The position numbers and the translations under genes were made by a program. From the IMG/VR virus record IMGVR_UViG_2778261457_000007: a stretch of 46,467 bases of DNA. One strand, 5' to 3'. This stretch comes from a virus (lineage: Duplodnaviria; Heunggongvirae; Uroviricota; Caudoviricetes). A model generated the notes under the pieces. The model made no database searches and had not been told where the DNA came from. It saw nothing but the letters and a program-made list of their open reading frames with translations. Below, piece by piece: positions 423 to 41,713 of the stretch (the first letter of the stretch is position 1; every line of letters starts with the position of its first letter).

Positions 423-998
423 CTACGGCAGTGCTGGCCATTCAATATCCTGTGAAGTTGACGTATCAACACGGTTCAGCAATACCCGATACTTTTTCCA
501 TGCTTCCAGCAACGAGATTTCTTCCTCCGTTGCAATTTCCAGATCTGCAGCATCCTGAAGCGGCGCAATATGCTCACTGGCTACCTGCATCAGGTTGTTT
601 TTTATTTCTTCCGCCTCCCGGATCCGGAACAGTTTTTCTGCTTCCGTATCCTTCACCCAGGCTGTGCCGTTCCACTTCTGAAACTCTCCTTCCGGCGATA
701 ACCAGGTAACATTTTCCGGTAACGGACCGAGTTCAGAAATAAATAACGCGTCGCCGGAAGCCACGTCATAAACCGTTTTACCCCGATGATCTTCAACGAG
801 ATGCCACGATGACTCATCACTGTTGAAAACAGCCACGAAGCCTGCCGGAATATCTGGCGGTGCAATATCGGTACTGTTTGCTGGCAGACCTGTATGAGGC
901 GGAATATATGCATCACCTTCACCAATAAATTCATTAGTTCCGGCCAGCAGATTATAAATTTTTATGGTCCGTGGTTGTTCACTCATTCTGAATGCCAT
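423..998 (-). CDS. tfa: tail fiber assembly protein
   Basis: 191 aa [24 protein letters not shown]... matches lambda Tfa from memory; start overlaps stf stop (TAATG). Confidence 0.9.
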
Positions 999-5259: not shown

Positions 5260-8200
5260 TCAGCTGATGCTGATGCCTGCGGTGGCTTTCTTCATCACCA
5301 CAACCAGCAAATCGCTGATACTTGCTGTGGGATACCAGTCATTTACCAGCCATGCTGACACCGAAAACTCCAGCGTCATGTGGCCGTGACCAGCTGGCAT
5401 ATCAATAACACCACTGTAAATCAGCGTATTATCCAGCGCGGTACGGTTATAAATTTCAGCACCATTTTTCTTCACTATCAGGCGGCATGACGAATAAATA
5501 TCGTTATTCTCCCGCTCATGTTTAGCGCCGCAGAATGCCACCGCCGGAATAACAATTTGCCTGTCAAAAGGCTGATCGTCATAAATCCTGACGGTAATGG
5601 TCCCTGATGGCCACCGCTCCGGTGCCCGGGAGTCCCGCGGGAAAGCCTTACCCACTGTTTTGACAATATCGCCTTCAATCTGGTTGGCTGACAGTTTCCC
5701 TTTAATCTGACAGTTCTCATTTATCGTAACGTTGTTGAGCGTCCCGGAGTTCGCATTCACACTGCCACTGATATCTGCATTTTTAGCGGTCAACTTTCCG
5801 TCCGGTGTCAGGGAAAATGCCGGAGGATTACCGCCGCTGGTAATGGTGGGAGCCGTCAGATATTTCAGGAACACTTCATTCATGAATATCTGATCACCCT
5901 GACCAACAAACATCGGTTTTGTGTTGCCATTTGCAGGATTAATCATCGCAATCCTGTCTGCCGCCAGCAGCACCTGACTCTGCATGCCGTCGGGGGTGTT
6001 CTCAATACCGGCACCGATACCCGCGATATAAAGGCGTCCGTCCTGCATCTGCTGCAGCTTCACAGCCCACATGCTGTTCAGATTATTATTTGTATCAACC
6101 TGAACCTTCTGTATCTGCTGGATCGCTGCACTCTGGTCTTCCAGTTTCTTATTGACGGTCTGTGTGATTTCATTGCTGACATCCGTAATGGATGTCCTGA
6201 TTTCAGCCAGGTCAGGCGCAAGCTGACCGTTATCAATCTGCGTCCACAGCTCCTGAGCCAGATGGGTTTTCCCTATCTCGCCTTTGAAAAAATCCAGATA
6301 GCCGGATGCGTCATCACTCGGCTGACCAACAGCCTCCACGAATGCCGATTTGCCAACGGTGTTCACACTGCGAACGTAAAAATAATAATTATGGCCCGGC
6401 CTGATATTGATACTGGCGGCTATCCAGTACAGCGCCGTGCCAAGATAGCGTGCTGTGGTTTCAACCTGCCTGATATCCGCAATCCGCTTTTCCGAGAACC
6501 AGAACTCAAACTGTACCGTCGGATCATAAACCGCAAGATGCGGCGTGGCGGTTATCTGAAAATAGCCCGGCGTCAGCTCAATCCGCGACGGCGCTGCCGG
6601 TGCGGCAATCCGGAACGATACCGACGCCGGATCGCCCTGCTGCCCCCACGCATTTACTGCCCGGACTGTCAGCCTGTAGTTCCCCAGAGCCAGTTGTGTG
6701 AAGCGGTAAGTGGTTTCCGTCGTCCGGGCCGTGCTGACCAGCCGCTCACTGCCGTCATCCGCTGCCACGGTCAGGCGAAGCATGAAACTCACGCCCTTCA
6801 CCACCTTCGGCGTGTCCCAGCGGGCCAGTACCTGATACTCCCCGCTGTCTGCGGTGACTTCGGCAGTCAGGTGATGCACTGCTGGCGGCGTGACACCATT
6901 CACCGTGCCGCTCTGGTCGCCGTCAAAGTGCGCCCCGTTATCCACGATAGCTTCTTTTTCCGGTACATGCTGCACGGCGGTGATGGCATACGTGCCGTCG
7001 TCGTTCTCACGGATACTCACGCAGCGGAACAGGCGCTGGCGCAGCGTCGGCAGCTTCAGCCCCCATACGCTGTATCCGGCAACGCCGTCAGGAACACGGC
7101 TCACTTTTACCTTCACGCCGTCGGTGACGGACTGGACCTCCACGCTGACCGGATTGCCACTTCCGTCAACCAGGCTTATCAGCGTGGTACCGGAGGATGG
7201 CAGCGTGATTTCACGGTCGAGCGTCAGCGTCCGGGTCTGGCTGTTCACCGCCAGCACGCGCCCGCCGGTGCTGATCCCCGCATAGTCATCATCGCAGATT
7301 TCAATGACATCGCCCGGCACATGGCGAAGCCCTTCCGCACCCACGCTGAAGTCCACGGTCTGCGTTTCCAGCAGTTCTGTTTTAATCAGCCACAGCCCGG
7401 CGCGGTGCGCCTGCCCCCGGCTGGTACAGCCAAAGGCATCCATCTTCGTGACGTTACGACCGTAACGGAGAATGGCCTGCGTATCTTCAACAAGCTCTGT
7501 CGCCGTCTCCCAGCCGTTATCCGGGTCAATCCAGTTCACCTCAACGGCATTATGACGGTCCTTCAGGGCACTGAAGCTGTAGCGGAACGGCGCGCCATCA
7601 TCCGGCATCACCACATTACTGCGGTTATAGGTCCACACCTTATCCGACGGTCGGTCCTGCACGAACGTCAGCGTCTGCCCGTTCCATACCGGCATACAGC
7701 GCATCGCCGAGCAGAAATCACTGAGAACATCCCACGCCTTGCGCTGTGTGGTCAGGTAGGCATTACAGGTGATGCGCGGCTCCGTGCCACCAAAGCCATC
7801 CGGCACCGACTGGTCGCAATTCTGGCCGATGACATACAGCGCCCATTTGTCCACATCCGCCGCACCGAGACGCTTCCCCATGCCGTAGCGCGGATGGGTC
7901 AGCATATCCCACAGACACCAGGCCATGTTGTTGCTGTATGCTGGCTTAAACGTTCCGTCCCAGATACCGCTGTATTGCCGCGTCTGCGGGTTATAGTTCG
8001 ACGGCACCTGCAGAATGCGCCCGCGAAGATGATAATTACGGCTCACCTGCTGGCTGCCGAACTGTTCCGAGTCCACCTGCACGCCGACCAGTGCCGTGTT
8101 CGGGTAGCACTGTTTCACATCGATGATTTCGGTGTATGACGACCAGAGCGTTTTGTTCTGCAGCTGGTCTGTGGTGCTGTCCGGCGTCATTCTGCGCATC

Positions 8201-8739
8201 CGGATATTAAACGGGCGCGGCGGCAGGTTATCCACCACCACCGAGGCCAGATACTGCGAGGTGGTTTTGCCCTTAATGGTGATGTCTTTTTCCGTCACCC
8301 AGCCACCATTACGCTGTATCTGAACCAGCAGGCGAACTTCCGACGGATTCCGGTCCCCCTTTGAGGTGGTTTCCACCAGTGCCTGCACACCGAAGGTAAA
8401 GCGCAGTCGGTCGATGTTTGCCGACGTGATGGCGCGGGTGATCGGCGTGTCGTATTTCACTTCCGTACCCAACACCGTCTCGGAGCCGGAGGATTCAAAT
8501 CCCTCCGGCGGAGTCTGCTCCTGCTCACCAGCCCGGAACACCACCGTGACACCGGCGATGTTGGTATTCCCATCACTGTCCAGCACCGACGTACTGTTCA
8601 GCAGCACGCTTTTTAATCCATCCACCGGACCTTCAATCGGCCCTTCACTGATGGCATCAATCACACTCAGCAACTGCGTGGACTTCAGGTTGTCCTTCGC
8701 TTCGCGCGGGGTATGCCCCTTACTGCTTCCTTTACCCAT
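5260..8739 (-). CDS. J: tail tip / host specificity protein J
   Basis: 1159 aa [24 protein letters not shown]...; lambda J-like over most of its length, with a C-terminal part that differs from lambda as I recall it. Confidence 0.9.
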
Positions 8740-8799: not shown

Positions 8800-9471
8800 T
8801 CAGCGACCAATCACCACAACCTGACCACCGTCCCCTTCGTCTGCCGTGCTGATCTCCTGAGAAACCACGCGTGACCCCACGCGCATTTCCCCGTACAGAA
8901 CAGGCAGAACATTGCCCTGGGCAACCATGTTATCCAGTGAGGAGAAATAGGTGTTCTGCTTACCGTTATCCGTTGTCTGTGTACGGGGAGTTCTGGCTTT
9001 CGGTGCCAGCATCTGCGCCACACCACCGAGCACCATACTGGCACCGAGAGAAAACAGGATGCCGGTCATACCACCGGCCCCAATGGCTGCCCCCCATGCT
9101 GCAAGGGTGGCTCCGGCGGTAAAGAATGATCCGGCAATGGCGGCAGCCCCCAGGACAATCTGGAATACGCCACCTGACTTGGCCCCGGCGACTCTGGGAA
9201 CAATATGAATCACAGCGCCATCAGGCAGAGTCTCATGTAACTGCGCCGTTAACCCGGACGTGCTGACGTCCCGCCCGGCAATCCGTACCTGATACCAGCC
9301 GTCGCTCAGTTTCTGACGAAACGCCGGGAGCTGTGTGGCCAGTGCCCGGATGGCTTCAGCCCCCGTTTTCACACGAAGGTCGATGCGGCGACCAAATCGT
9401 TGTAAATCCCCGTAAAGGCAGATGCGCGCCATGCCCGGTGACGCCAGAGGGAGTGTGTGCGTCGCTGCCAT
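8800..9471 (-). CDS. I: tail assembly protein I
   Basis: 223 aa MAATHTLPLASPGMARICLYGDLQRFGRRIDLR...; overlaps the 3' end of K by 103 bp, as in lambda. Confidence 0.9.
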   Translation of the reverse strand: MAATHTLPLASPGMARICLYGDLQRFGRRIDLRVKTGAEAIRALATQLPAFRQKLSDGWYQVRIAGRDVSTSGLTAQLHETLPDGAVIHIVPRVAGAKSGGVFQIVLGAAAIAGSFFTAGATLAAWGAAIGAGGMTGILFSLGASMVLGGVAQMLAPKARTPRTQTTDNGKQNTYFSSLDNMVAQGNVLPVLYGEMRVGSRVVSQEISTADEGDGGQVVVIGR

Positions 9472-10112
9472 TTGTCGGTGTACCTCTCTCGTTTGCTCAG
9501 TTGTTCAGGAATATGGTGCAGCAGCTCGCCGTCGCCGCAGTAAATTGCGGCGTGATTCGGCACCGATGAACCAAAACAGCACAGCAGCACATCGCCCGGC
9601 TGTGCCGCTGACAACGGCACCTGATACAGCCCTGTGGCCTCCAGATTATCCAGATAGAGATTCTGGCCGTTACGCCACCAGTCATCCTCACGATGAAAGG
9701 CCGGCATCTCAATCCCCGCCAGATGATAAGCATCCCGGAACAGTGTGTAACAGTCCGTCACACCGTGCTCAAAGCGCCGCCCGGTGAGATGCGGCACACA
9801 GCGGAACTTATGAATCGTCCCCCGGCAGACCAGCCACCACGGCAAATCACTCTGCACCTGCAGCCGCCGGTCGGCCTCACTCAGCCAGGGCAGACCACCG
9901 GGGTGGCTGTGGACCAGCGCCACAATCTCACCCTGCATTTCTGCCTGCAGCCAGTCTTCCGGCGACATACGGAAATACGCCTCCGGCTCACCGGAGATAT
10001 TCACGCAGGGGAAATATCTTTCCCCCTCCGGCGTGCTTACCACGAAGCCGCACGACTCCGCTGGCGCACATCGCCGGGCGTGCGCCAGAATCGCTGATTC
10101 TGTCTGTGTCAT
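9369..10112 (-). CDS. K: tail assembly protein K (JAMM/MPN plus NlpC/P60-like)
   Basis: 247-aa ORF with an HSHPGG JAMM motif and Cys/His peptidase-like C-terminus; the reference lambda annotation (199 aa) corresponds to the internal Met at 9968. Confidence 0.8.
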   Translation of the reverse strand: MTQTESAILAHARRCAPAESCGFVVSTPEGERYFPCVNISGEPEAYFRMSPEDWLQAEMQGEIVALVHSHPGGLPWLSEADRRLQVQSDLPWWLVCRGTIHKFRCVPHLTGRRFEHGVTDCYTLFRDAYHLAGIEMPAFHREDDWWRNGQNLYLDNLEATGLYQVPLSAAQPGDVLLCCFGSSVPNHAAIYCGDGELLHHIPEQLSKRERYTDKWQRRTHSLWRHRAWRASAFTGIYNDLVAASTFV

Positions 10113-10117
10113 GGGAT

Positions 10118-10571
10118 TTACTGCGAAAGTTTGTTAATGGAAAGGAAGCCGCCAAAGTTGCCGACGTTATTGCGGAACTTACAACCGCTCAGGCATTTGC
10201 TGCATTTATCCTTCGTGATATCGGACGTTGGCTGGTCATATTCATCCGCGACAGCCGGACCGCTATAACCGCACTCGTCACCGCGATAGGTCCAGGTGCA
10301 GGTGTTGGCCAGCATGATACGTCCCGGAAAAACAGCGCCATCCGTTTCCGTCGGCGTGGACAGTACAAAGGAGGCACTCACCGCGCTCAGTTCGCTGCAC
10401 TGCTCAATGCGCCAGCGGCTGATCACCTCCTGCTCCGGATCGGCGCCACTGTTTCCGTTGACGAAGTTCACCGCATCCAGAAAACGGGCGTAAACCTTAC
10501 GCCGGACCACCGTTCCACCGACCAGACTCTGCAGATCTTCCATTCAGTGTTTCCTGCCGGATATCCTGCAT
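10118..10571 (-). pseudogene. L: tail tip protein L, disrupted (internal deletion of about 81 codons plus frameshift)
   Basis: ATG at 10571 overlaps the M stop and encodes MQDIRQETLN, then shifts frame and stops after 24 codons. The L C-terminal 141 aa (EDLQSLVGG...SINKLSQ) continues in another frame from 10543. Lambda L is 232 aa. Confidence 0.7.
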
Positions 10572-10900
10572 CAGTTCACCACCTGTTCAAACTCTGCGCT
10601 GAACTCAACACGCAGCATACTGACCCGCGACGACCATTTTGCGCAGGTCACCTTTATCTGCCGCCACTCATAAGGCGGCGTCCACAGAAAGGCTTTCCAG
10701 CCCCCGTGCTCTTCCAGAAACGACTCCAGTACCGTGGCCTCCTCACGGGGGACAGAAAGCGTCACGCTGTACGTTTTCAGGTTGGCATTCAGCCCGGCAG
10801 GCGCTCGCTGGGAATAGCCATCACCAAAGCGCACCTTTCTTACAGAAGGGGCCGAAGCCACATCCATACCGGGTTTCACTTTCCAGCGGAAGGTTTTCAT
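10571..10900 (-). CDS. M: minor tail protein M
   Basis: 109 aa MKTFRWKVKPGMDVASAPSVRKVRFGDGYSQ... matches lambda M. Confidence 0.9.
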   Translation of the reverse strand: MKTFRWKVKPGMDVASAPSVRKVRFGDGYSQRAPAGLNANLKTYSVTLSVPREEATVLESFLEEHGGWKAFLWTPPYEWRQIKVTCAKWSSRVSMLRVEFSAEFEQVVN

Positions 10901-13476
10901 CGTCCACCTCCGGAGAACAGACCACCATCGCGCATCTGTGCCTGGATTTCATCACGGGCACCCTTGCGGGCCATGTCATACACCGCCTTCATCATCTGTG
11001 GACCTGGCAGACCATTCGTACCGTCGTTCTGAATCACCACGTGATTGTTCTGATTAAAATTAATGCCTTCAGCCCGCCGCATCTGCGCCGGACTTCCGGC
11101 ACCGCCCACATAACCACCTTCCGCATAGCCCCGCATCAGGCGGTACAGGTTGCCGACACCAATCCGGCTGGTTGCCTCCTTCGTGAAGACAAATTCACCA
11201 CGGTGAACAATCCCCGCTGGCTCATATTTGCCGCCGGTTCCCGTAAATCCCCCGGTCGCAAAATGGAATTTCGCCGCAGCGGCCTGAATGGCTGTACCGC
11301 CTGACGCGGATGCGCCGCCACCAACAGCCCCGCCAATGGCGCTGCCGATACTCCCGACAATCCCCACCATTGCCTGCTTAAGCAGAATTTCTGTCATCAT
11401 GGACAGCACGGAGCGGGTGAAGCTGCGCCAGTTCTGTTCACTGCCGGTCAGCATCGCCGCCATATTCTGCGCAATACCATCAAAGGTCTGCGTGGCTGCA
11501 CTTTTAACCTGCGACATACTGTCCGTGGCACTCTCTTTCCACTCGCTCCAGCCGGACCTGAGGCCTGCCATCCAGTTCCCGCGAAGCAGGTCTTCAGCCG
11601 CCCAGGTCTTTTTCTGCTCTGACATGACGTTATTCAGCGCCAGAGGATTATCGCCATACTGTTCCTTCAGGCGCTGTTCCGTGGCTTCCCGTTCTGCCTG
11701 CCGGTCAGTCAGCCCCCGGCTTTTCGCATCAATAGCGGCCCGTTTTGCCCGTTGCTGCTGTGCGAATTTATCCGCCTGCTGCGCCAGCGCGTTCAGGCGC
11801 TCCTGATACGTAACCTTGTCGCCAAGTGCAGCCAGCTGGCGTTTGTACTCCAGCGTCTCATCTTTATGCGCCAGCAGGGATTTCTCCTGTGCAGACAGCT
11901 GGCGACGTTGCGCCGCCTCCTCCAGTACCGCGAACTGACTCTCCGCCTTCCACAAATCCCGGCGCTGCTGGCTGATTTTCTCATTTGCTCCGGCATGCTT
12001 CTCCAGCGTCCGGAGTTCTGCCTGAAGCGTCAGCAGGGCAGCATGAGCACTGTCTTCCTGACGATCGCCCGCAGACACCTTCACGCCGGACTGTTTCGGC
12101 TTTTTCAGCGTCGCTTCATAGTCCTTTTTCGCCGCCGCCATCAGCGTGTTGTAATCTGCCTGCAGAATTTTCCCGTCCTTCAGTGACTTGTTCAGTTCTT
12201 CCTGACGGGCGGTATATTTCTCCAGCGGCGTCTGCAGGCGTTCGTAAGCCTTCTGCGCCTCTTCGGTATATTTCAGCCGTGATGCCTCAGACTCGGCCCA
12301 GTCCTTTGCTGCCATCTCTCTGGCCTTTTCAAGATCGGCCTGCAACGTGGCGGCTGAAAGCCCAAGTTGCGCATTCGCTCTCTTCTCCCATGCTCCCCGG
12401 AGATTGGCAAGAAATGCTGAGGTTTTACCGCGCCGGTGGCTCCGGCTCTGATACCACTGCCATTTTTTGTCCGCCTCATCAAAAGCCTTTTCTGCTTTCT
12501 CCAGCATTCCCTGGGCAGTGTCCGGGCGACCAATATCCAGCACCGAATCCCACATGGATTTGAATGCCCGTGCTGTCCTGTCTGCCCAGGTCTCCAGCGT
12601 GCCCATGTTCTCTTTCAGGCGGCGGGTCTGGTCATCAAACCCTTTCGTTGCGGCCTCGTTCGCCGCCTGCAATGCCCCGGCTTCATCTCCGGAACGCTGC
12701 AACTGAGCAACATACGCAATCTGCTCCGCCGTCACGTTATGGAACTGACGTGCCATCGCTGTCAGTCCCGACGTCGGGTCTGTGGTCAGCTTCCCGAAGG
12801 CTTCAGCGACCTTGTCCACCTCCACGCCGGATGCAGAGGAGAAACGCGCCACACTCTGGCTGATCGCCTCAAACTGCTCACCACCACGCACACCGGCATT
12901 CACCAGCGCCGTCAGTGACTCGCTGGTCTGGTTAAACGTCAGCCCTGCCGCCTGCCCGGCTCTGGACAGGACCAGCATACGATCTGCCGTCAGTCCCGCC
13001 TGATTGCCGGAAAGGACCAGCGTTTTGTTGAAATCGGACAGGGTTGAGTTGCCCTGATACCAGGCATACGCCAGCGCACCGGTCGCCACCGCCAGCGAGG
13101 TGGCCCCCACCATCGGCAGGGTGATCGCACCGGCAAGCCCCCTGAACATGGGGATCATCCCGCCGAAGGAGTCCTTAACCTGACCACCCTGTTGCAGCAG
13201 GATCAGCCACGGGCTTTGCCCGCCTGCAAGCTGCGTGGCCACGTCGGTGAACTGTGCAGGCAGCATACGCATGGCGGCTTTATACTGCCCGACGGAAATC
13301 CCCGCTTTCTGTGCAGCCAGCGCCTGTCGGCTCAGCGACTGTTCAACGACTGCCGCTGTTTTTTTCGCATCAGTTTCCGTACCGGAAAAATGACGCCTGA
13401 CTCTGGCCATCTGCTCGTCAAATCTGGCCGCATCCAGACTTAAATCAACGACCAGATCGCCTACCGGTTCAGCCAT
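10897..13476 (-). CDS. H: tail tape measure protein H
   Basis: 859 aa MAEPVGDLVVDLSLDAARFDEQMARVRRHF...; coiled-coil-rich; matches lambda H. Confidence 0.9.
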   Translation of the reverse strand: MAEPVGDLVVDLSLDAARFDEQMARVRRHFSGTETDAKKTAAVVEQSLSRQALAAQKAGISVGQYKAAMRMLPAQFTDVATQLAGGQSPWLILLQQGGQVKDSFGGMIPMFRGLAGAITLPMVGATSLAVATGALAYAWYQGNSTLSDFNKTLVLSGNQAGLTADRMLVLSRAGQAAGLTFNQTSESLTALVNAGVRGGEQFEAISQSVARFSSASGVEVDKVAEAFGKLTTDPTSGLTAMARQFHNVTAEQIAYVAQLQRSGDEAGALQAANEAATKGFDDQTRRLKENMGTLETWADRTARAFKSMWDSVLDIGRPDTAQGMLEKAEKAFDEADKKWQWYQSRSHRRGKTSAFLANLRGAWEKRANAQLGLSAATLQADLEKAREMAAKDWAESEASRLKYTEEAQKAYERLQTPLEKYTARQEELNKSLKDGKILQADYNTLMAAAKKDYEATLKKPKQSGVKVSAGDRQEDSAHAALLTLQAELRTLEKHAGANEKISQQRRDLWKAESQFAVLEEAAQRRQLSAQEKSLLAHKDETLEYKRQLAALGDKVTYQERLNALAQQADKFAQQQRAKRAAIDAKSRGLTDRQAEREATEQRLKEQYGDNPLALNNVMSEQKKTWAAEDLLRGNWMAGLRSGWSEWKESATDSMSQVKSAATQTFDGIAQNMAAMLTGSEQNWRSFTRSVLSMMTEILLKQAMVGIVGSIGSAIGGAVGGGASASGGTAIQAAAAKFHFATGGFTGTGGKYEPAGIVHRGEFVFTKEATSRIGVGNLYRLMRGYAEGGYVGGAGSPAQMRRAEGINFNQNNHVVIQNDGTNGLPGPQMMKAVYDMARKGARDEIQAQMRDGGLFSGGGR

Positions 13477-14307
13477 ACCGGACTCCTCCTGCGATCCCTT
13501 CTGATACTGTCATCAGCATTACGTCATCCTCCGTCATGTCCGCCACATCCGGGGAAGCGGGGATAACTTCATTCCCGTCCGGGCCAAAACGAACGCCTCC
13601 GGCAAGCCCTGCCGCTTTCTGCATCAGCACATCATCTTCAGGCTCTTCGTCAGCCTCGCGCCGGTTCAGCAGACTGAAATCCAGCGGATGCATCTCCGGA
13701 TCGCTGAAAAACAGGCTGAGCACGGTGTACGTCAGCCCGGAAAAGTGCATATCCAGCAGAACATCATGAAAATAATGGGTACTGTAAAAGCGGTGCCAGT
13801 CGGCATACTCCGTGGATGACATCCCGGCAAGCATGGCGCGCCAGTCGGGTCGCCCCATCTCACGCGCCAGTTTCAGGGCAAAACTCAGCTCACCGTCGAA
13901 CACTTTCCCGCAGAAACAGGCTCTGCAGGCCCGGCGTCCTCTGCCTGTTCAGGAGCATCATTCACCACAAACTCATACATACCGGACAGCCGGTACACCA
14001 CGTTTTCAGCATGAGAAATTGCCTCTGTGGGCCAGGTGGTAAGCACTTCCTGCTCAATCTGTTTAACGGCTTCATTCATGGAAGGCAGCTTTGTCTTCTT
14101 CGGATGGTTATGCCACAGGGACATCGCCACCAGAAACGCGCCGGTTCTGATGGCGTCTTCCACAGTAAACTTCCGGTTGCTGTCTGACTCCGCCTGTTCT
14201 GCCTGCCGTTTCATCAGGGCGAGATGCTCAATACGCTGCAGGGCTGACAGTTCAGAAAGCGTGACGGTCACACCGTTATGTTCAAATGATTCGGTTTTCA
14301 GGAACAT
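13469..14307 (-). CDS. T: tail assembly chaperone G-T fusion (programmed -1 frameshift product)
   Basis: T-frame ORF 13469-13903 overlaps the 3' end of G; slippery heptamer G GGA AAG lies in the G zero frame at 13903-13909 (minus strand). Confidence 0.8.
13885..14307 (-). CDS. G: tail assembly chaperone G
   Basis: 140 aa MFLKTESFEHNGVTVTLSELSALQRIEHL... matches lambda G. Confidence 0.9.
   Translation of the reverse strand: MFLKTESFEHNGVTVTLSELSALQRIEHLALMKRQAEQAESDSNRKFTVEDAIRTGAFLVAMSLWHNHPKKTKLPSMNEAVKQIEQEVLTTWPTEAISHAENVVYRLSGMYEFVVNDAPEQAEDAGPAEPVSAGKCSTVS
13903..13909 (-). promoter_or_regulatory. G/T -1 ribosomal frameshift slippery site (GGGAAAG)
   Basis: heptamer read directly on the minus strand, in the X XXY YYZ register of the G frame. 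Confidence 0.75.
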
Positions 14308-14322
14308 CGCTGACTCTCCGGA

Positions 14323-15063
14323 TTAACTGGCGGTGACGTTGATTTCTGCAACCGCAGCAAACTCACCATTACCGGATACGACCGGAATGTTGACCTTGCC
14401 TGCAGCAACACCTTTCACGGTGATGGTCATACCACTGACCGACACGGTGGCTTTTGTTTTATCCGCAGACACCGCACGGAAGCTCTTGTCGGTTGCGCCA
14501 TCCGGCTGGAATGCCACGGTCAGCGTGGTGCTCTGCCCTTTCACTACGGAAGCACTGGCGGGTGTCACCGTCATGCCGGTTGTCGCCGTCACCGTGCTGC
14601 GATCTTCTGCCATCGACGGACGTCCCACATTGGTGACCTTCACCGTGCGGGTAATCACTTCCTTCGCCGTCACCGCCTTACCGATACTGCTGACCCAGCC
14701 ACGGAACACATCGACCGTGCCGTTCGGGAAGCGGATTTTATAGGCACGGGTATCGCCTTCATTAAACCACGCCAGCAGCGCCTGCTGCCCCTGCTCTCCG
14801 GGCATCCACGCCAGCGTGAAGCTGGTATCTCCGGCAGATTTCTGCCCCTGCCCGGTCGCAGTCCAGTCTGCATCTTCATCATCGAGATAGCTGTCGTCAT
14901 AAGACTCAGCGGTCAGTTCGCCGGGCGTCAGGTCTTTAACTTTTGCCAGACGCGACCAGTCAACGTCTGAAAGCGGATTCGCATAAGGGTCACCACTCCC
15001 CTTATAAACCCACAGGGTGGTCCCGGCCCCTTTCACCGGCATTACAGGATTTGGTACAGGCAT
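14323..15063 (-). CDS. V: major tail tube protein V
   Basis: [22 protein letters not shown]... matches lambda V; ATG at 15063 preceded by GAGGA; the ORF track extends to an upstream in-frame start at 15093. Confidence 0.9.
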
Positions 15064-15070
15064 AGCGTCC

Positions 15071-15466
15071 TCACATTTCATAGGTAATGACATAAGTCAG
15101 ATCGGCTGAACTCCACAGGCCCGCATCATCGTCGCGCCGATAGTCATAGCCGCTGGTCACCATACTGGTGATCAAATCTGACAGTGCCGGGATATCACTC
15201 ATCACCGGATAAATCCGGGACTCCATCCACGCATCCAGCTCTGAATCCGGCACCTGAGCAGGCAGGAAAACTTCAATATGCAGCTCCGCCTGCCAGGTAT
15301 CGCTGTCCAGCTCTTCGCCCGTGTATTCAGCGCCGGTGAGATAAACGGCAATTGCCGGAAAATCTTCCTCATCAAAAACAGCGGGGCGACCATCAAAAAG
15401 CGTCGCCCCGGTGTCATGCTTCTCCAGTGCATCCAGTACGGCTGCTCGGAGTTCAGTATGTTTCAT
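15071..15466 (-). CDS. U: tail terminator protein U
   Basis: 131 aa [28 protein letters not shown]... matches lambda U. Confidence 0.9.
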
Positions 15467-16041
15467 CGCTTTATTACCATCCTCAGTTGATGCTGCAGCG
15501 CATAGCCCAGCTCTTTCGGAAGACGCTCACGCCGTATCCGCTCAATATTCTGTTTAAACGCCGTGGTCAGCGGCACCGCCATCGGGATTTTCACCACATC
15601 AATGGGGTAACGATTTTTCCCGGCCACACGCTGCATGACATGCCAGCGGCCATTTTTCAGTTGCTGAATAAACGCGCCGGGAATACGACGGTTTCCCACC
15701 ACAAGCACGCTGCCGCCACCTTTCAGGGCTGAACGCTGCCCCTTTTTACGACGCCTGCGTCGGGACAGGACAATCCGCGCGTTACCCAGCTTTATTACGG
15801 GCAAATCCCCCCGGTTAACCTTGATTCTGGCCTGCGGATTTTTGACCGTGGCCCTTTTCAGCCTGGCCCTTTCCTTTACCAGTTTCCGGCGTACCTTTGT
15901 CTCACGGGCAACCTGTGACGCCGACTGCGATATCGCGGATGAAGCAACGCGGTTAATGGCCATTGCGGCGGCACCGGGCACCGCCGTTCTGCTGATACGG
16001 CTGAGGTTTTCAACGGCCTGCTCAAGACCTTTTATGGCCAT
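15463..16041 (-). CDS. Z: tail completion protein Z
   Basis: 192 aa MAIKGLEQAVENLSRISRTAVPGAAAMAINR... matches lambda Z. Confidence 0.9.
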   Translation of the reverse strand: MAIKGLEQAVENLSRISRTAVPGAAAMAINRVASSAISQSASQVARETKVRRKLVKERARLKRATVKNPQARIKVNRGDLPVIKLGNARIVLSRRRRRKKGQRSALKGGGSVLVVGNRRIPGAFIQQLKNGRWHVMQRVAGKNRYPIDVVKIPMAVPLTTAFKQNIERIRRERLPKELGYALQHQLRMVIKR

Positions 16042-16052
16042 ACATCCCCCTT

Positions 16053-16406
16053 TCAGCGGCGACGGTTAACGGCAGGCGGTACGCCCCGCCCAAGCCAGAG
16101 ATGACAGCTTCCGCCATCATCTGGCGAAATCCGGTCTATCCAGAAGTTTTCCTCACCGATGGTCAGCGTGTCGCCGCGCCGCAGCTGCCGCACATCATCA
16201 GTCCGGACAAACAGGGACGGGCTGGAGCCTTCAACGCGCACGCCCTGTCCGGCATAGCTGATATTTTCAGGGTCATCAAAAACACCACGTATCACAGCAC
16301 CGGACTGCTCACCGGATGTCATGGTGGCTGACGTTCCCATGTACCCGCGTATCGTTTCATCGGCGCGGGCAATGGCAGCATCGAACAGGTTATCGAAATC
16401 AGCCAC
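16053..16406 (-). CDS. FII: head-tail joining protein FII
   Basis: 117 aa MADFDNLFDAAIARADETIRGYMG... matches lambda FII. Confidence 0.9.
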   Translation of the reverse strand: MADFDNLFDAAIARADETIRGYMGTSATMTSGEQSGAVIRGVFDDPENISYAGQGVRVEGSSPSLFVRTDDVRQLRRGDTLTIGEENFWIDRISPDDGGSCHLWLGRGVPPAVNRRR

Positions 16407-16417
16407 AGCGCCTCCCG

Positions 16418-16813
16418 TTATTGCATTCTGGCCAGGCCGCGCTCTGTCATTTCAGCTGCCACACCGGCAGAGACACGGAACGCCGTTCCCGGCAGCACAA
16501 ATGCCACAGGCTCATCCCGCGTGGCGTGAAGTGCATCAGTATGCAGCGTCACCAGTGCCACGACCGTGACCAGAGCAGCCGTATCAATCACGGTATCCGG
16601 CTGCGCTGATACCACCTCATTTTCATGTCCGGTCAGCGCATTTTCCGGGCTGACAGATGTGTCCTGACCGGCAGCGTCATCCGTGTCATCAAGCTCCTCT
16701 TCCAGCTCTGCCACACGGAGCACCAGTTCTTCTTTCGTCCCCGTCAGGCTGACATCACGGTTCAGTTGCTCACCCAGCACCTGAAGACGGGCAATCAGTT
16801 CATCTTTCGTCAT
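16418..16813 (-). CDS. FI: DNA packaging protein FI
   Basis: MTKDELIARLQVLGEQLNRDVSLTG... matches lambda FI; ATG at 16813 preceded by GGAGGA; ORF track start is further upstream. Confidence 0.85.
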   Translation of the reverse strand: MTKDELIARLQVLGEQLNRDVSLTGTKEELVLRVAELEEELDDTDDAAGQDTSVSPENALTGHENEVVSAQPDTVIDTAALVTVVALVTLHTDALHATRDEPVAFVLPGTAFRVSAGVAAEMTERGLARMQ

Positions 16814-16854
16814 GGACTCCTCCACAGAGAGAAAATGGCCCCGAAGGGCCATGA

Positions 16855-17880
16855 TTACGCCAGTTGTACGGACACGAACGCATCAGGGTCAGCCAGCAGC
16901 ATCAGCGGTGCTGACTGAATCATGGTGAACTCACGCGCCGGATCGCCGGTGGTCACCCAGTTTTTCGGGTAGCGGGCAGAGGCGTTAATACCTTCGCGCT
17001 GTGCGTCCGCATCCTGAATGCAGCCATAGGTGCGCAGACCGCGTGCCTGAGTGTTCCCCAGCACCATCGTGTTGTCCGGCAGGAAGTTCTTTTTGACGTC
17101 GTTTTCCACGTACTGTCCGGAATACACGACGATCGCCGTATCGCCATACATCCCCTTATAGGACACCGCTTCGCCCAGGTCTTTTACCGCTGTCTCCAGC
17201 TCGGAATTAGAGCCGCGACGGGTATCCAGCTTCTCCTTGACGGCTTTGAAGGAACGGAACAGCGCCCAGCCTTTCGGATCAAACACGATGATATTCACCA
17301 CACCGCTGGCGTTCAGCGCGTAGGCTTCGATATCGTCGGTCGGGTCATACGTGGACTTGTCACGCTTGCTCCACTCCGTACCGCCGGACTGTGTGATGTT
17401 GTTCGCCGCACTGCGGCCCATATCCACCTCAACCGGATCGAAGGCTTCACCGGTCATGGTGTATTTGCCCTTAAGCACAGCAGAAACTGCCTGCATCTCT
17501 TCGACCTGAGCAATGGCCAGCTCTTCGTCTCGCATGTTCTGCATGATGATGCGACGGCGGCGGTAAGCCGGGTCCGCCAGATTCTGCGGATCTTCATCCG
17601 GCAGGCGACGCAGGGTCATCTGCGGATTCACCTCATGCTTGGGTTTGACATATCCCGGCGTAAATTCAGAGGTGGAGCCGCCACGGGAACGGATAACCTC
17701 ACCGGAAACAATCGGCGAAACGTACAGCGCCATGTTTACCAGTCCCGGAATTTGTGAGAGATAGACTTTCTCCGTGGTGAAGGGATAGCTCTCACGGAAA
17801 AAGAGACGCAGAAACAGCGGATCAAACTTAAATTTCTGCTCATTTGCCGCCAGCAGCTGGGCGGTTGTGTACATCGACAT
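16855..17880 (-). CDS. E: major capsid protein E
   Basis: MSMYTTAQLLAANEQKFKFDPLFLRLFFRESYPF... matches lambda E (341 aa); ATG at 17880. Confidence 0.9.
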   Translation of the reverse strand: MSMYTTAQLLAANEQKFKFDPLFLRLFFRESYPFTTEKVYLSQIPGLVNMALYVSPIVSGEVIRSRGGSTSEFTPGYVKPKHEVNPQMTLRRLPDEDPQNLADPAYRRRRIIMQNMRDEELAIAQVEEMQAVSAVLKGKYTMTGEAFDPVEVDMGRSAANNITQSGGTEWSKRDKSTYDPTDDIEAYALNASGVVNIIVFDPKGWALFRSFKAVKEKLDTRRGSNSELETAVKDLGEAVSYKGMYGDTAIVVYSGQYVENDVKKNFLPDNTMVLGNTQARGLRTYGCIQDADAQREGINASARYPKNWVTTGDPAREFTMIQSAPLMLLADPDAFVSVQLA

Positions 17881-17935
17881 AAAAAAATCCCGTAAAAAAA
17901 GCCGCACAGGCGGCCTTTAGTGATGAAGGGTAAGG

Positions 17936-18268
17936 TTAAACGATGCTGATTGCCGTTCCGGCAAACGCGGTCCGTTTTTTCGTCTCGTCGCTGGCAGCCT
18001 CCGGCCAGAGCACATCCTCATAACGGAACGTGCCGGACTTGTAGAACGTCAGCGTGGTGCTGGTCTGGTCAGCATCAACCGCCAGAATGCCAACGGCAGT
18101 ACCGTCGGTGGTGCCATCCCACGCAACCAGCTTACGGGTGGAGGTGTCCAGCATCAGCGGGGTCATTGCAGGCGCTTTCGCACTCAATCCGCCGGGCGCG
18201 GTTGCCGTATGTGCCGGGTCACTGTTGCCCAGCGGCTGGTAATGGGTAAAGGTTTCTTTGCTCGTCAT
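17936..18268 (-). CDS. D: head decoration protein D
   Basis: [33 protein letters not shown]... matches lambda D; ATG at 18268. Confidence 0.9.
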
Positions 18269-18277
18269 AAACATCCC

Positions 18278-19577
18278 TTACACTGGTGTGTTCAGCAAAT
18301 CGTTAACGGCATCAGATGCCGGGTTACCTGCAGCCAGTGGTGCCGGTGCCCCCTGCATCAGACGATCCAGCGCAGTGTCACTGCGCGCCTGTGCACTCTG
18401 TGGTGCAGCTGCCAGAATGCGGCGGGCCGTTTCCACGGTCATACCGGGGGTTTCGGCCAGCACACGTGCCTGTTCTTCGCGTCCGTGAGCTTCCTCACAG
18501 TTGAGGATCCCCATAATGCGGCTGTTTTCTGCCGCAACCGCAGCGGTGATCTGCGCGTTCACGTCCGGCTGCGCCGCGCTGGCGTTTTCGCCCTCCGTCG
18601 CTTGCACCACGTCAGTAACGTCAGCCTGCGAAGCAGTGGCTGAAACAGTTGTTGATTGAGTCTCTTTGGTCATTCGCCCTCCTGAGAGACGGGATTTACG
18701 TGCATCCAGTGCATCACGCATAACGGTGATCGCATCGGTGCTGTTGACAAGTTCATCAGCCAGTCCGGCATCAATGGCCTCCTGACCGCTGTACATTGCA
18801 GCCTCGGTATCCAGCACAGCCTGCACGGACAGGCCGGTATATGCCGACACCTTCTGCGCAAACATCCGGCGGGTTGCATCCATCCGGGACTGCAGTGTCT
18901 CCCGGACATCACCCGGTAGATGGCTGTAGGGGTTGCCATCCACCTTATGGCTGCCGCTGTAAATCAGCGTGATTTCCACGCCCTGTTTCTCCAGCGCAGC
19001 GCCGTAATTACTGTGAGCCATCATGACGCCGATGGAGCCTGTCCGGGCGGTCTGCGTGACCAGACGCCGGGAGGCGGCGCTGGCAAGCAGCTGACCTGCA
19101 CTGCAGTTCATGTCGTTGGCCAGCGCCCATACCGGCTTTATGTCACGCACACGGGCGATGATGTCAGCACAGTCAAATGCTCCCGCCACCATCCCGCCCG
19201 GTGTGTCCATATCGAGCAGAATGCCGTCCACCATCGGATCGCTGGCAGCCTGTTGCAGACGAGCGATAATGCCGTTGTAACCGGTCATTCCCGAATACGG
19301 CTGCAGCGCCCGCGTCCGGCTGACCAGCGTACCGGACACCGGCAGCACGGCGATGCCGTTCATGACCTGATAACTGCGGGCCTGTCGTGGTCCGTCATCA
19401 TCACCGGATAACGCCAGCGCCGCGGGTGCCTCTCCGGCAGTCAGGCTATCGCCGGATACTGCATCCGTCAGGCGACTGATCCCAAGCTGGCCTGCAAGCG
19501 CACAAAAGAAAACCCGCGCATAGGCGGGTTCAAGCATCAGCGGCTCATTAAAAGCCATGCTGGCAATATGCGGGAGA

Positions 19578-19597
<20 letters not shown>
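18278..19597 (-). CDS. C: capsid assembly protease C (S49 family; scaffold Nu3 nested in frame at the 3' end)
   Basis: VTAELRNLPHIASMAFNEPLMLEPAYARVFF... matches lambda C; GTG at 19597 preceded by GAGGAGGAG; overlaps the B 3' end by 20 bp. Confidence 0.85.
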
Positions 19598-23278
<3,681 letters not shown>

Positions 23279-23304
<26 letters not shown>

Positions 23305-23824
23305 TCAGCAACCCCGGTATCAGTTCATCCAGCGCGGCTGCTTTGTTCATGGCTTTGATGATATCCCGTTTCAGGAAATCAACATGTCGGTTTTCCAGTT
23401 CCGGAAAACGCCGCTGCACCGACAGGGGGATCCCGTCGAGAATACTGGCAATTTCACCTGCGATCCGCGACAGCACGAAAGTACAGAATGCGGTTTCCAC
23501 CACTTCAGCGGAGTCTCTGGCATTTTTCAGCTCCTGTGCGTCGGCCTGCGCACGCGTAAGTCGATGGCGTTCGTACTCAATAGTCCCTGGCTGGAGATCT
23601 GTCTCGCTGGCCTGCCGCAGTTCTTCAACTTCCCGGCGCAGCTTTTCGTTCTCAATTTCAGCATCCCTTTCGGCATACCATCTTATAACGGCGGCAGAGT
23701 CATAAAGCACCTCATTACCCTTGCCACCGCCTCGCAGAACGGGCATTCCCTGTTCCTGCCAGTTCTGAATGGTACGGATACTCGCACCGAAAATGTCAGC
23801 CAGCTGCTTTTTGTTGACTTCCAT
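23279..23824 (-). CDS. nu1: terminase small subunit Nu1
   Basis: 181 aa MEVNKKQLADIFGASIRTIQNWQEQGMPVLRG... (HTH); matches lambda Nu1. Confidence 0.9.
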
Positions 23825-25641: not shown

Positions 25642-25912
25642 GATGTTACCGTAGTATGTGAGTATCCATCGAATAGACACCAAGCCAAAAAGCTCCCGAA
25701 GGAGCCTTCATTTTCACTTTTTTAAATCCAACGACAGACGGCTGGCATTTAAGTATTGTGAAATATTATCAAATGTAATCATCATTGATTTACAAAAGAT
25801 ACATTTTGCCCCGAAAGGATTCATGTCAGAAACATCAAAAGATGATGTTCTATACTGGGAACCATGACAACACGGGCATCTAAAGTGAATATGGTTTGTA
25901 ATATTGTCTACC

Positions 25913-26125
25913 TCAAAGCGCCACTACATGAACAGCGGCAGGACCTTTAGGTCCGTTCTCAATACCAAATTCAACTTCCTGATTCTCAGTTAATGTTTTG
26001 AAATCGTTGCTCTGAATTGCTGAGAAATGGACAAACACATCTTTGCTGCCATCTTTCGGCGTGATGAAACCAAAACCTTTTTCAGGGTTAAACCATTTCA
26101 CTAAACCAGTCATTTTGTTAGACAT
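25913..26125 (-). CDS. cspI: cold-shock protein (CspA family)
   Basis: 70 aa [38 protein letters not shown]... with RNP1/RNP2 motifs; long upstream untranslated region. Confidence 0.8.
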
Positions 26126-26487
26126 AATTATTACCTTTTGAAGAAATTAGCCCTTGGGCAGAATGGTCCGAAAAAAAATATCAGAGAGAAAAACCAACAA
26201 GGAAATCTCAAGAGGTACAAATAATAAAATTATAACAATGACTGCTTCAGATAAATTTGTAACAAACCAGAACACCATTAACGCATGATTAACCACCCAT
26301 AGCAAGGATTACTTTTGTAAAGAAAAACACAGCAATGAAAGAATAGCTTTATTTATTAATAAAACGTGTCATTCTGATTAAGACCTTTTATCTTACCCTT
26401 AAGATTTCAGGAATTTTGGCTCATGGAAGAGTCCTTTTTATTTAAATTTTACATTCCGCGATGTAAATGTTCCGATTTAATATTACC

Positions 26488-28432: not shown

Positions 28433-28795
28433 TTGATTTTATTAGTAACAAGTATTTTTTATATTTTAATAATATATTTAAAGCAGATAATAAAAAACCC
28501 GCCTGAGCGGGTTTGAGATTGTGGTGCTTTTTGTGGGAGTCATCCACTTACGCACTTTGTTTTGCGATGCCAGCAGTTAGCTTCTGCTGTGAAACTATTC
28601 ATGCAGCAAACCTGCACTTCACCACAATGGTTAGCATACTTTTCCTGATTAAGATTTTGCCAAATATGCTGGCCATTGTTTCATGTATTGGACCTCCTTA
28701 CTTTTTATTAAAGAGATCCAATATTCACTACTCTGTCCGTATCTCTACTCAGGCATCAGCCTTCTTCGTTATCGTATACAGACGAGCGATGAATT

Positions 28796-29011
28796 TTAAT
28801 CAGTAATGATGACATTTACTGCTGCAGGACCTTTAGCACCACTCTCTATAGAGAAGGTAACCTTTTGACCTTCAAATAAGGTTCGATAATTATCATTCTG
28901 AATCGCAGAAAAATGCACAAACACATCTTTACTACCATCAACAGGAGAAATAAAGCCGAAACCTTTATCAGCGTTAAACCATTTTACTAAACCAGTCATT
29001 TTATTTGACAT
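28796..29011 (-). CDS. cspB: cold-shock protein (CspA family)
   Basis: 71 aa [46 protein letters not shown]... Confidence 0.8.
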
Positions 29012-29321
29012 TCTACATTCCTTAACTTGAGCCTTTCGGCATAAATGGTTTGCATAACAGAAACGACTTCGTACTTAATTGGAGAGACTCAAAGAAGGAA
29101 TAAGTGAATAACACCTGAAATGAGAACTGCTTTAGTAAACTACTTCGTATATCGTCTGTTCTTCAAACCGACGCAGTCATTAACTCATAGTTGAACATAT
29201 GAAGCAATGTTTATTTTAGACATCCAGCCACCTTCAATCCTATCAAAAAAGTAGTTTTCTCCAGGAACGTGTGTATGGTGCACCAGGTTATCAGTATTAA
29301 GGAGTTTTTCTGTCCCCTAAA

Positions 29322-34628: not shown

Positions 34629-35969
34629 TCAATCTTTTTTATCGGGATCAGGCTTCTTTTTAGGTAACTTCGGGGGCTTAACTTGCTGATGACTTTGCGT
34701 TCGGCGCGTAAGCCAGGGATGGTCAGCTTTAGGTTTAACATAGTATTTTGAGCGTAAATCAATACGGGCATTATCCACTCGTTCATGGACACTCTTTTCA
34801 TCATCCAGTGGTATAGGCTCCGGGCCATCAACATACTTTTCCCAGCCCAGCGCTTTCCCGTCATACAGAACGTTAATTTCACCGTCAAAGTTCTCGCATA
34901 CAGTAACAACCGAATGCCTAAGTCGATATCCCCGGCTCTCACTGCGTACCTGAAACGCACTGCTTTTGTACTGGAAAGTGAGATTTTTAGACAGAACGCG
35001 CTTCGCCTGTAGGCTGAAGATATAACCCAGTTCCTCTTCAGAATGGTGCACATCAAGATGAGCATTATCAGTAGTACGAGGCGACGTAGCGAACCGGTTG
35101 TTATAGGCTTCAATAAAGGTCGGCAACCATGCATTTGCTGTTTCAATATCACTGATATTCTGAAGCCGCATTTCTTTGACCAGCCTGTCCTGTAGTGTCT
35201 GATTGGCGCGCTCTACCCGCCCTTTTGCCTGCGGGCTGTTGGCATGGATTGGCTCGATGCCCAGTGTCTTTATCGCACGAGTGAACTGGGTCAGCTCACC
35301 TTCCCGCTCTGGGTTATTTACCCTGAATATACTGTGTCTATCAGAGTAGAGAGCGAGCGGTACGCCATGATCATTAAGGTAACCCCGGAGGGTTTCCATG
35401 TAAGCCCGGGTTGTTTCAGCAGGCACAAAACGCAACGCCATCAACGCACTGGTGGCATCATCAATGAAAACGATCAGTGTACATCTGGGGCCTCGATTTT
35501 CAAACCAGTCATGAGGTGAGCCATCAATCTGGATCAGTTCACCGTAAGATGGTCGTCGCATGCGGCGTTGATATATACGGGCAATTTTACGACGGCGTTC
35601 ACGCCATAACCCCTCTTCTATCATCCACTTTCTGAGAGTTTCAACGGATAAAGATAAACCGTGTATCTCGCGCAATTTTTCGCACGCAAACGTAGGTCCA
35701 AAATCAGCGTAACGGCCTTTGAGGAGTGAAATTACTGTTGCTCTGAATTCAGTAGAAAAGGAATTATTAGGACGCTTTCCACGTCGGTGGGAAACCAGAC
35801 CAGAAGGCCCTTCATTTCTATACCGTTGCACCAGACGTTTAACCTGCCGAATAGAAATGCCAATGCGTGCCGCAGCTTGTTCCTGAGTAATATGTCGATT
35901 AATTGACTCCTGAATAATCTGAAGTCGGTGGAGTTCCTTATGACTCATCGTAACAGTCTCTTTGATCAT
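34629..35969 (-). CDS. DDE transposase / integrase-core (rve-type) protein with N-terminal HTH; IS-like element, boundaries unresolved
   Basis: 446 aa MIKETVTMSHKELHRLQIIQESINRHITQEQAAARIGISIRQVKRL..., integrase-core-like middle region and lysine-rich tail; GGGGGA upstream of the ATG; IS family not determinable without a search. Confidence 0.7.
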   Translation of the reverse strand: MIKETVTMSHKELHRLQIIQESINRHITQEQAAARIGISIRQVKRLVQRYRNEGPSGLVSHRRGKRPNNSFSTEFRATVISLLKGRYADFGPTFACEKLREIHGLSLSVETLRKWMIEEGLWRERRRKIARIYQRRMRRPSYGELIQIDGSPHDWFENRGPRCTLIVFIDDATSALMALRFVPAETTRAYMETLRGYLNDHGVPLALYSDRHSIFRVNNPEREGELTQFTRAIKTLGIEPIHANSPQAKGRVERANQTLQDRLVKEMRLQNISDIETANAWLPTFIEAYNNRFATSPRTTDNAHLDVHHSEEELGYIFSLQAKRVLSKNLTFQYKSSAFQVRSESRGYRLRHSVVTVCENFDGEINVLYDGKALGWEKYVDGPEPIPLDDEKSVHERVDNARIDLRSKYYVKPKADHPWLTRRTQSHQQVKPPKLPKKKPDPDKKD

Positions 35970-36303
35970 GAAAAATCCCCCAGAGAATTGTCTGGGGACA
36001 TTTTAGAATGGTTCAAAGGGGACATTACAGCTTGGTGTTAACAATAGCCTGCTTCTCCGTGCCTTTCGGCACGTAAGAGGCTAACCTACATGTGTCTAGC
36101 ATGAAATTGGCCTCAGATTAATGTTAAGCGTCTTGCAGGACGCGTAATGTTAACTGGGGCTTTTCTCTATCTGCCGTTGGTGTCCATGCCCGAGGCAGAT
36201 AGCCTCAAGCACCCGCAGTCATTCTACTTAACTAAGATTTCCCCGCAAACCGTTTTTGTCCAGCACAGTAAATATCCAACTAAACCAATGGAGTTCGCTG
36301 TAT

Positions 36304-36483: not shown

Positions 36484-37634
36484 TATTCCTCCTACAATCA
36501 ATGTGCAATTACATTTAAACACACCTCAATTTGGCCGGACATATAAATATCTAAACCAGAAAAAATCACTTACATAGCGTTACAAACTCTTTAGTCTAAA
36601 GGTTCATCGTAAAACATTCCCCATACTTATCAGTCCGTTCCGCGCCAGGTAGCTCATTGCCTTATCTGGCAACCTGTAATCAGGTTTCCGCTTTTTCAGT
36701 TGGCTGGTCGTTTAACCGACATAGTTAATCCATTAATCTAGTTGCCGGATGTTGGTGGATTTTCGCGTTTTAGTTGTTCATAAAAGTGCACAGCTTTAAC
36801 CAGTTCTTCTGATGTAACCGGGACTGGTGAGGCAGTGAATAAGGCCTGAATTTGATAGTTCGGCCTGTCGTTACAATCCTCTTTTTTCGGTACATATTTC
36901 CAGTCACCAGACCACTACTTCCCCTGAAAGTCCGTAACGCTTTTTTCACGTAGCGATATCGCCATGCCACTGGTTTTGCTTGCCCCGCCGTTTCATGCCC
37001 TTCCTGATAATTAATCTCGCTCATTCATCGCCCCACTCATCACAATATGCTTCGACCGGAGTTTTTCCCGCTTCATAGTCATCACGTTAGGATTCGACAT
37101 CAGCAGCACTTCCACCGCGTAATTCACCATAGTCCATTAATAGTTCATCCCGCTCTTCAAAACTGATGTTATATTTAGCTGAACAAAAATCAGCCACTTT
37201 GTTCTTCCTCATCGTCTTTTATTTCGTGGTATGAGTAATTGCAGTAGTTAAAGAAAATTTCTTATGCTCCGTCATGAATTTCATCAGGTGTTGCGTCATC
37301 GTCCACTTCGAATACATCCTCAAAATCTCCACCAGCTATTTCCGTTTCAATAATAATTTTGAACTTTCGCATTTCACTACCGCCCTTTCGGGCGGCCTCC
37401 TGATGTTCTGAGGGTGCAGAAATCCATCCGGTTAAGGATTAAGTTTTATTTACAGAACTGAATTTAATTATTCAGATATACGTATCTGTAACCTTACGAA
37501 TCTACTCACTGGATGCCTCTTTCATAAAAATAATCCAGTGGGTTTTATCGTTTTTTCCCTGTTCGTTGACAGATAACAGGCTTTCTATCTGTCAGTGCCA
37601 GAATCTGGCTTACCGGTATTTGCGTTTCATTCCA

Positions 37635-37991
37635 TTAAAAAATCAGAACGCCGTGCGGCCTCAACACCCGAAAAGCTTCTTTAAATCTCTGTCGCAAATC
37701 ATCACGCCAGGCATCTTTATTCAGCCGTCCATATTTCTTTCCCATCCAGGCGTTATCACCAACACGCTCAAGATGCGGAGGGTCTAATACAACCATCGAA
37801 AAAGATGCGTCTGCAAATGATAATGCACGAAAATCTGCGATAATGTCAGGGCTGATAATCAAGCGTCTCCCATTGCGTAATGTGTATCCTTCTTTTCTGA
37901 TATCGCTGAATATCGCCCGTTTGTCAGACTTATCGAACCAGAACATGCGGCTGCCACAGCACATATCAAGAATGGTTGCCGGTGCACTCAC
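37635..37991 (-). CDS. small DNA/RNA amino-methyltransferase-like protein, possibly truncated
   Basis: 118 aa with motif-I-like ILDMCCGSRMF and motif-IV DPPH about 55 residues later, then stop; GTG start overlaps the upstream stop (GTGA). Confidence 0.5.
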   Translation of the reverse strand: MSAPATILDMCCGSRMFWFDKSDKRAIFSDIRKEGYTLRNGRRLIISPDIIADFRALSFADASFSMVVLDPPHLERVGDNAWMGKKYGRLNKDAWRDDLRQRFKEAFRVLRPHGVLIF

Positions 37992-41660: not shown

Positions 41661-41713
41661 TTTCTGGTGACGTTTGGCGGTATTAGTTTTACTCCGTGAC
41701 TGCTCTGCCGCCC
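41661..41713 (+). ncRNA. dicF: DicF small regulatory RNA
   Basis: TTTCTGGTGACGTTTGGCGGTATTAGTTTTACTCCGTGACTGCTCTGCCGCCC followed by TTTTT; matches DicF from memory apart from one position. Confidence 0.85.

Follow-up and report, generated by a model that had tools for sequence, protein, structure and literature searches.

In phage lambda, L is among the genes required for tail assembly, a pathway in which J acts first and in which I, L and K join ahead of H and V (PMC3224144). Cryo-EM of the lambda tail divides the product of L (gpL; NP_040597; PDB 8IYK, 8IYL, 8K35, 8XCG and 9E7M) into two domains: residues 1-166 form the HDI β-sandwich, which builds the last tail ring with gpJ and docks onto the gpM ring, and residues 154-232 form an Fe-S domain, in which Cys173, Cys182, Cys205 and Cys212 coordinate a [4Fe-4S] cluster (PMC10721106). 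Lambdoid prophages that are complete but for the inactivation of a single essential gene are well known; in the defective lambdoid prophages of O157 Sakai, small deletions, frameshifts or IS elements disable genomes that are otherwise complete, and these prophages can be rescued by others (PMC2669165). The case described below is of the same kind but belongs to another prophage lineage and consists of a single private lesion in a tail gene, known from sequence alone.

The Qin (Kim) locus of Escherichia coli K-12 is a cryptic prophage, and it is devoid of head and tail genes. In the 46,467-nucleotide stretch of DNA analysed here (the window), the E. coli Qin locus is occupied by a full-length lambdoid prophage whose late genes lie on the minus strand, as judged through the annotation of the closest complete genome. 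This prophage is like K-12 Qin in its neighbourhood and in its cargo (pinQ, ydfK, nohA, cspB/F/I, rzpQ/rrrQ/essD, ydfT/ydfU, rem, hokD/sok, relBE, flxA, dicB, DicF, and int by rspB), and unlike it in that it retains a lambda-type morphogenesis module in which a single gene is broken. This gene is L; as in lambda, it lies between M and K and its start overlaps the stop of M, and the parts of it that are retained are about 99% identical to lambda L in DNA. In contrast to lambda L, it is without 245 bp (codons 11-92) and its frame is broken, so that a full-length gpL is impossible.

Source, locus and nearest relatives

The window corresponds to part of contig NNVV01000002.1 (264 kb) of the draft assembly GCA_002485875.1, with which the compared stretch of 20.4 kb is identical. 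It begins at contig position 48, within an IS3 copy, and contigs that break off within an IS element are characteristic of short-read drafts. The closest complete genome is that of E. coli N1286 (NZ_CP178401.1, 4716220-4762931); base-by-base comparison over the 46,467 positions gives six single-base differences and one 245-bp gap. In the N1286 annotation, the prophage reads pinQ, IS3, tfa, stf, lom, J through Nu1, the Qin cargo (ynfO, ydfO, gnsB, cspI/B/F, lysis genes, ydfT/ydfU, rem, hokD, relBE, flxA, dicB and ydfD), exonuclease, xis, and int next to rspB. Placement at the Qin locus follows from int adjoining rspB and from this cargo, seen both in the N1286 annotation and by Rfam on the window itself, where DicF, sok and two cspA-type elements are found. 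The cspA-type thermoregulator leaders of cspI and cspB (25886-26271 and 28749-29172, minus strand) and the sok antitoxin RNA of hokD (36043-36214, minus strand) are expected Qin cargo. Rfam also places an IS009 RNA, likewise expected, at 457-655 (minus strand), inside the tfa region; a search of the window for tRNA genes was negative.

Between int and tfa, PhiR42_1 (PV340562.1) and the prophages of N1286 and JNEC-KY180 are collinear with the window, a truncated IS remnant included, and differ from it in that the 699-bp L is intact in all of them. PhiR42_1 is recorded as an Escherichia phage and deposited as a complete phage genome, the host named being ECOR13, a different strain. Taken by itself, this record suggests that the backbone could still yield phage; had PhiR42_1 come from plaques, full-length Qin relatives would be live phages. 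A literature search found no publications describing PhiR42_1 (PV340562) or the assembly NNVV / GCA_002485875.

The single-base differences from N1286 include five in coding sequence, all five of them nonsynonymous: at 3244 (stf A429P), 21223 (W T54A), 22055 (terminase A D417G), 40021 (cro-like S37G) and 43595 (exonuclease K413N). Judged against lambda and PhiR42_1, the changes in W and in the exonuclease are derived in the window and that in the terminase is derived in N1286; five coding changes are too few for a test of relaxed selection. The DicF small RNA (41662-41713, plus strand; Rfam RF00039, 70.8 bits) carries a C-to-T change private to the window at 41684, position 23 of its 52 nt, which turns GGTATCAG into GGTATTAG; both N1286 and PhiR42_1 have C at this position.

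The deletion in gene L

The gene order M-L-K-I-J is retained. M ends with the TGA at 10573-10571 and L starts with the ATG at 10571-10569, both on the minus strand, so that the two genes overlap by one base, as the initial annotation had described and as in lambda. From there on, the L locus spans 10118-10571 (minus strand), or 454 nt, that is, 699 minus 245. Base-by-base comparison with the intact L of N1286 shows that nucleotides 32-276 of L (or, equivalently, 31-275) have been lost, and that the window keeps L nucleotides 1-30, one G that is either nucleotide 31 or nucleotide 276, and nucleotides 277-699. The junction lies at 10540..10541, with the single G common to both endpoints at 10541. 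What has been removed is codons 11-92 less one base; these 245 bp amount to 81.7 codons, in agreement with an earlier estimate of about 81 made against the 232 residues of lambda gpL, a length that is itself correct, and the frame is shifted as a result. Alignment to define the endpoints had been called for; once run, it gave the same 245-bp gap against lambda L and against N1286 and no full-length in-frame L. The endpoints given here are those of the exact base-by-base comparison with N1286, in which the gap follows L nucleotide 31, and not those of the MAFFT alignment with lambda L, in which the gap came out 44 nt upstream of its true place, behind GAACA close to the end of M.

The same 245-bp gap is seen against the record of PhiR42_1, and in lambda and about 80 other phage records the match to a 1001-bp query is split in two and spans 1245-1246 bp. 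The missing 245 bp were not found elsewhere in the window, where only chance matches of at most 19 nt occur.

Two open reading frames stand in place of an uninterrupted L frame of about 232 residues with a whole HDI domain (1-166). The first, at 10497..10571 (minus strand), keeps the native ATG and Shine-Dalgarno sequence (SD) and has 24 codons, 10 native and 14 out of frame, before a TAA; as the initial annotation had read it, it encodes MQDIRQETLN and then leaves the frame, continuing with GRSAESGRWNGGPA up to the stop, so that the whole peptide is MQDIRQETLNGRSAESGRWNGGPA. The second, at 10118..10543 (minus strand), is the 141-codon frame that had been taken for the last 141 residues of gpL in another frame. 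The frame and its length stand, whereas the number of native residues does not: the first Met codon is created by the deletion junction and is followed by 140 native residues, gpL 93-232. Accordingly, tblastn with lambda gpL matches the window over residues 93-232 only, and the 141-residue product matches Phage_tail_L (PF05100) with 217.7 bits (E = 1.4e-64) over profile positions 65-206 of 206, whereas the intact L of N1286 covers positions 1-206. This fragment comprises the HDI domain's C-terminal half together with the entire Fe-S domain, and Cys173, 182, 205 and 212 are all present.

The fragment may be produced from the junction ATG. This codon has an in-frame TGA directly upstream and a weak AGGA 8 nt upstream, and its predicted pairing with the anti-SD (-5.7 kcal/mol) is comparable to that of some genuine late-gene starts. 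That the junction ATG is a new start favoured by selection was considered and found to lack support, about 20% of random ATGs within the module scoring as well for SD.

Origin and distribution of the deletion

Within 30 nt of both endpoints, neither microhomology nor direct or inverted repeats longer than 5 nt were found, and none of those present is in register. An origin by slippage or by collapse of repeats is thus unsupported; since the endpoints share a single G and nothing longer, the event has the look of an illegitimate deletion independent of homology, not of slippage between repeats. In spontaneous deletions of E. coli the microhomology is usually longer than 1 nt, and a single shared nucleotide is slightly unusual.

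The M-L flanking stretch is widespread: it occurs in 4,193 of 5,426 complete E. coli genomes, at a median of 2 and a maximum of 7 places per carrying genome, and the 245 bp are present throughout among the best matches. The junction itself is found in none of these collections: a 50-mer centred on it is absent from the 5,426 complete E. coli genomes, and a 37-mer across it is absent from IMG/VR, the GTDB species representatives and JGI metagenome contigs. Among database records, the 141-residue L product appears on NNVV01000002.1 alone. The deletion allele is thus private to one assembly and, as the surrounding prophage is nearly identical to siblings in which L is intact, it is either very recent or an artefact.

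This raises the question as to whether the strain really has an intact 699-bp L, the deletion being an error of assembly or sequencing. The source is a short-read draft with a contig ending inside an IS3 copy, the allele is known from a single assembly, and the several near-identical copies of L that are frequent in E. coli genomes complicate assembly graphs. A false join in a k-mer graph nevertheless needs a k-mer common to both sides, and here the endpoints share 1 nt and no nearby repeat exceeds 5 nt, which likewise makes collapse of a repeat by the assembler unlikely; the flanks are, moreover, free of other errors by comparison with N1286. Since the endpoints have no k-mer in common, an artefact is judged improbable, and a genuine deletion is assumed in what follows.

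The remainder of the morphogenesis module and of the prophage

Apart from L, every head and tail gene had been described as reading through, and this holds. The proteins Nu1, A, W, B, C, D, E, FI, FII, Z, U, V, G, T, H, M, K, I and J each match the corresponding lambda protein, 19 in all, over its whole length in a single stretch without stops, with 83-99.8% identity. The lambda-type module thus has 19 of its 20 genes complete and in order, L being the exception and matched over residues 93-232 only. On the minus strand, M (distal tail protein, 109 aa) lies at 10571..10900 and is intact, with 98.2% identity to lambda gpM over residues 1-109; K (247 aa) at 9369..10112, I at 8800..9471 (99.6% to lambda gpI over residues 1-223) and J, the central tail fibre (1159 aa), at 5260..8739 are intact as well; and Nu1, A, W, B, C/Nu3, D, E, FI, FII, Z, U, V, G, T and H, all full length, occupy 10897..23824. 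Near the end of G, at 13909, lies G GGA AAG, the slippery heptamer of the G-T programmed -1 frameshift site, and the G frame reads it in the X XXY YYZ register. The earlier interpretation, in which L is broken within a module that is otherwise intact, is thereby supported.

In lambda, K is annotated with 199 aa, compared with 247 aa in the window, where a JAB/MPN domain precedes the NlpC/P60 domain; the start of the 199-aa form has a good SD (-9.5 kcal/mol). The ATG of the long form lies 6 nt past the L stop and lacks its own SD, and translation of this form may therefore depend on ribosomes that complete L, that is, on translational coupling. Coupling of K to L would make a second, indirect effect of the deletion possible.

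Beyond the module, the prophage shows damage. The early-right region contains a truncated transposase gene of the IS1202-like ISEsa1, along with a methyltransferase gene and a hypothetical gene that both carry frameshifts (34899-35969 and about 36600-37950), and an IS3 copy (1-309), in which the source contig ends, lies against tfa on the tail-fibre side. The ISEsa1 remnant is common to the window, N1286 and PhiR42_1; being shared with these two relatives, the early-region lesions predate the deletion in L. The prophage could accordingly have been dead already, in which case the loss of L would be without phenotype and merely a further erosion of a cryptic element. Besides the truncated ISEsa1 gene, the two frameshifted genes (as annotated in N1286) and the IS3 copy next to tfa, the cryptic state of Qin in K-12 speaks for this possibility. 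It is set against the full length and the 83-99.8% identity to lambda of the 19 other morphogenesis proteins; against the int, xis, exonuclease, cI/cro-like, O-like, Q and lysis genes, none of which is flagged as a pseudogene in the N1286 annotation; and against the collinear PhiR42_1, which has the same IS remnant and was deposited as a complete phage, although its viability is suggested by the record alone. An already dead prophage is thus a possible explanation but a rather doubtful one.

Consequences for tail assembly

The gpL of the intact sibling and that of lambda have all but 2 of 232 residues in common (M95L and Y124G), and lambda genetics and structure can thus be transferred directly. 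The statement of the initial annotation that gpL is needed for tail assembly agrees with the listing of L among the required genes (PMC3224144). The deleted residues 11-92 make up about half of the HDI domain, and on structural grounds there is a strong case that gpL function is lost; although the Fe-S domain survives, the loss of half of HDI makes an L-null, tail-less phenotype the best reading, and the prophage by itself probably cannot build tails. Taken as a whole, it is very likely that an illegitimate deletion in L of a lambdoid prophage at the Qin locus has abolished the function of this tail-tip gene.

The mechanism proposed is as follows. An illegitimate deletion with almost no homology between its ends has taken 245 bp out of L and shifted its frame. 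Translation from the native L start would now yield a 24-residue peptide, and the weak start created by the junction would give, at best, a 141-residue fragment without gpL residues 1-92. As it is gpL residues 1-166 that form HDI, such a fragment would be unable to complete the tail-tip initiator (J, I, L and K, then H and M), and the tail tube would not be nucleated. Upon induction, and provided that the early functions work, DNA-filled heads without tails would be expected, and no infectious particles would be released unless another resident lambdoid prophage gave gpL.

That the 141-residue fragment might on its own act as a functional gpL, given the retention of the four Fe-S cysteines and the presence of a possible SD and ATG, is barely conceivable: residues 1-92 of the 166-residue HDI, the builder of the last tail ring, are absent (PMC10721106), and no other genome has so short an L at an internal position. 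It is also very improbable, if slightly less far-fetched, that the fragment, made in stable form from the junction ATG, might attach to gpJ or gpI and so poison tail-tip assembly in co-resident or superinfecting lambda-like phages; were this true, a broken structural gene would be a dominant-negative, defence-like factor.

A different issue is whether the prophage still spreads, either with gpL supplied in trans by another lambdoid prophage or after repair of L by recombination. The M-L stretch occurs in most complete E. coli genomes (4,193 of 5,426), those that have it carrying 2 copies at the median and 7 at most; defective O157 prophages are rescued through prophage-prophage interactions (PMC2669165), and temperate phages recombine with defective prophages (PMC3945230). 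Supply in trans would, however, require a compatible L elsewhere in the source genome that is expressed at the same time. Continued spread by either route is plausible in principle but considered unlikely, though by no means negligible, and the reading retained is that of a prophage disabled in tail assembly by the loss of gpL function.

Significance

The lesion in L is a case of ordinary prophage decay and not a novel type of feature; it has little significance beyond annotation and raises no new biological questions. In practical terms, L should be annotated as a pseudogene in GCA_002485875.1 and the prophage as defective in tail assembly. With one private lesion and six SNPs between it and its intact siblings, the prophage offers a clean case of the first step of prophage decay, handy for measuring the rate of prophage inactivation or for the production of tail-less head donors.
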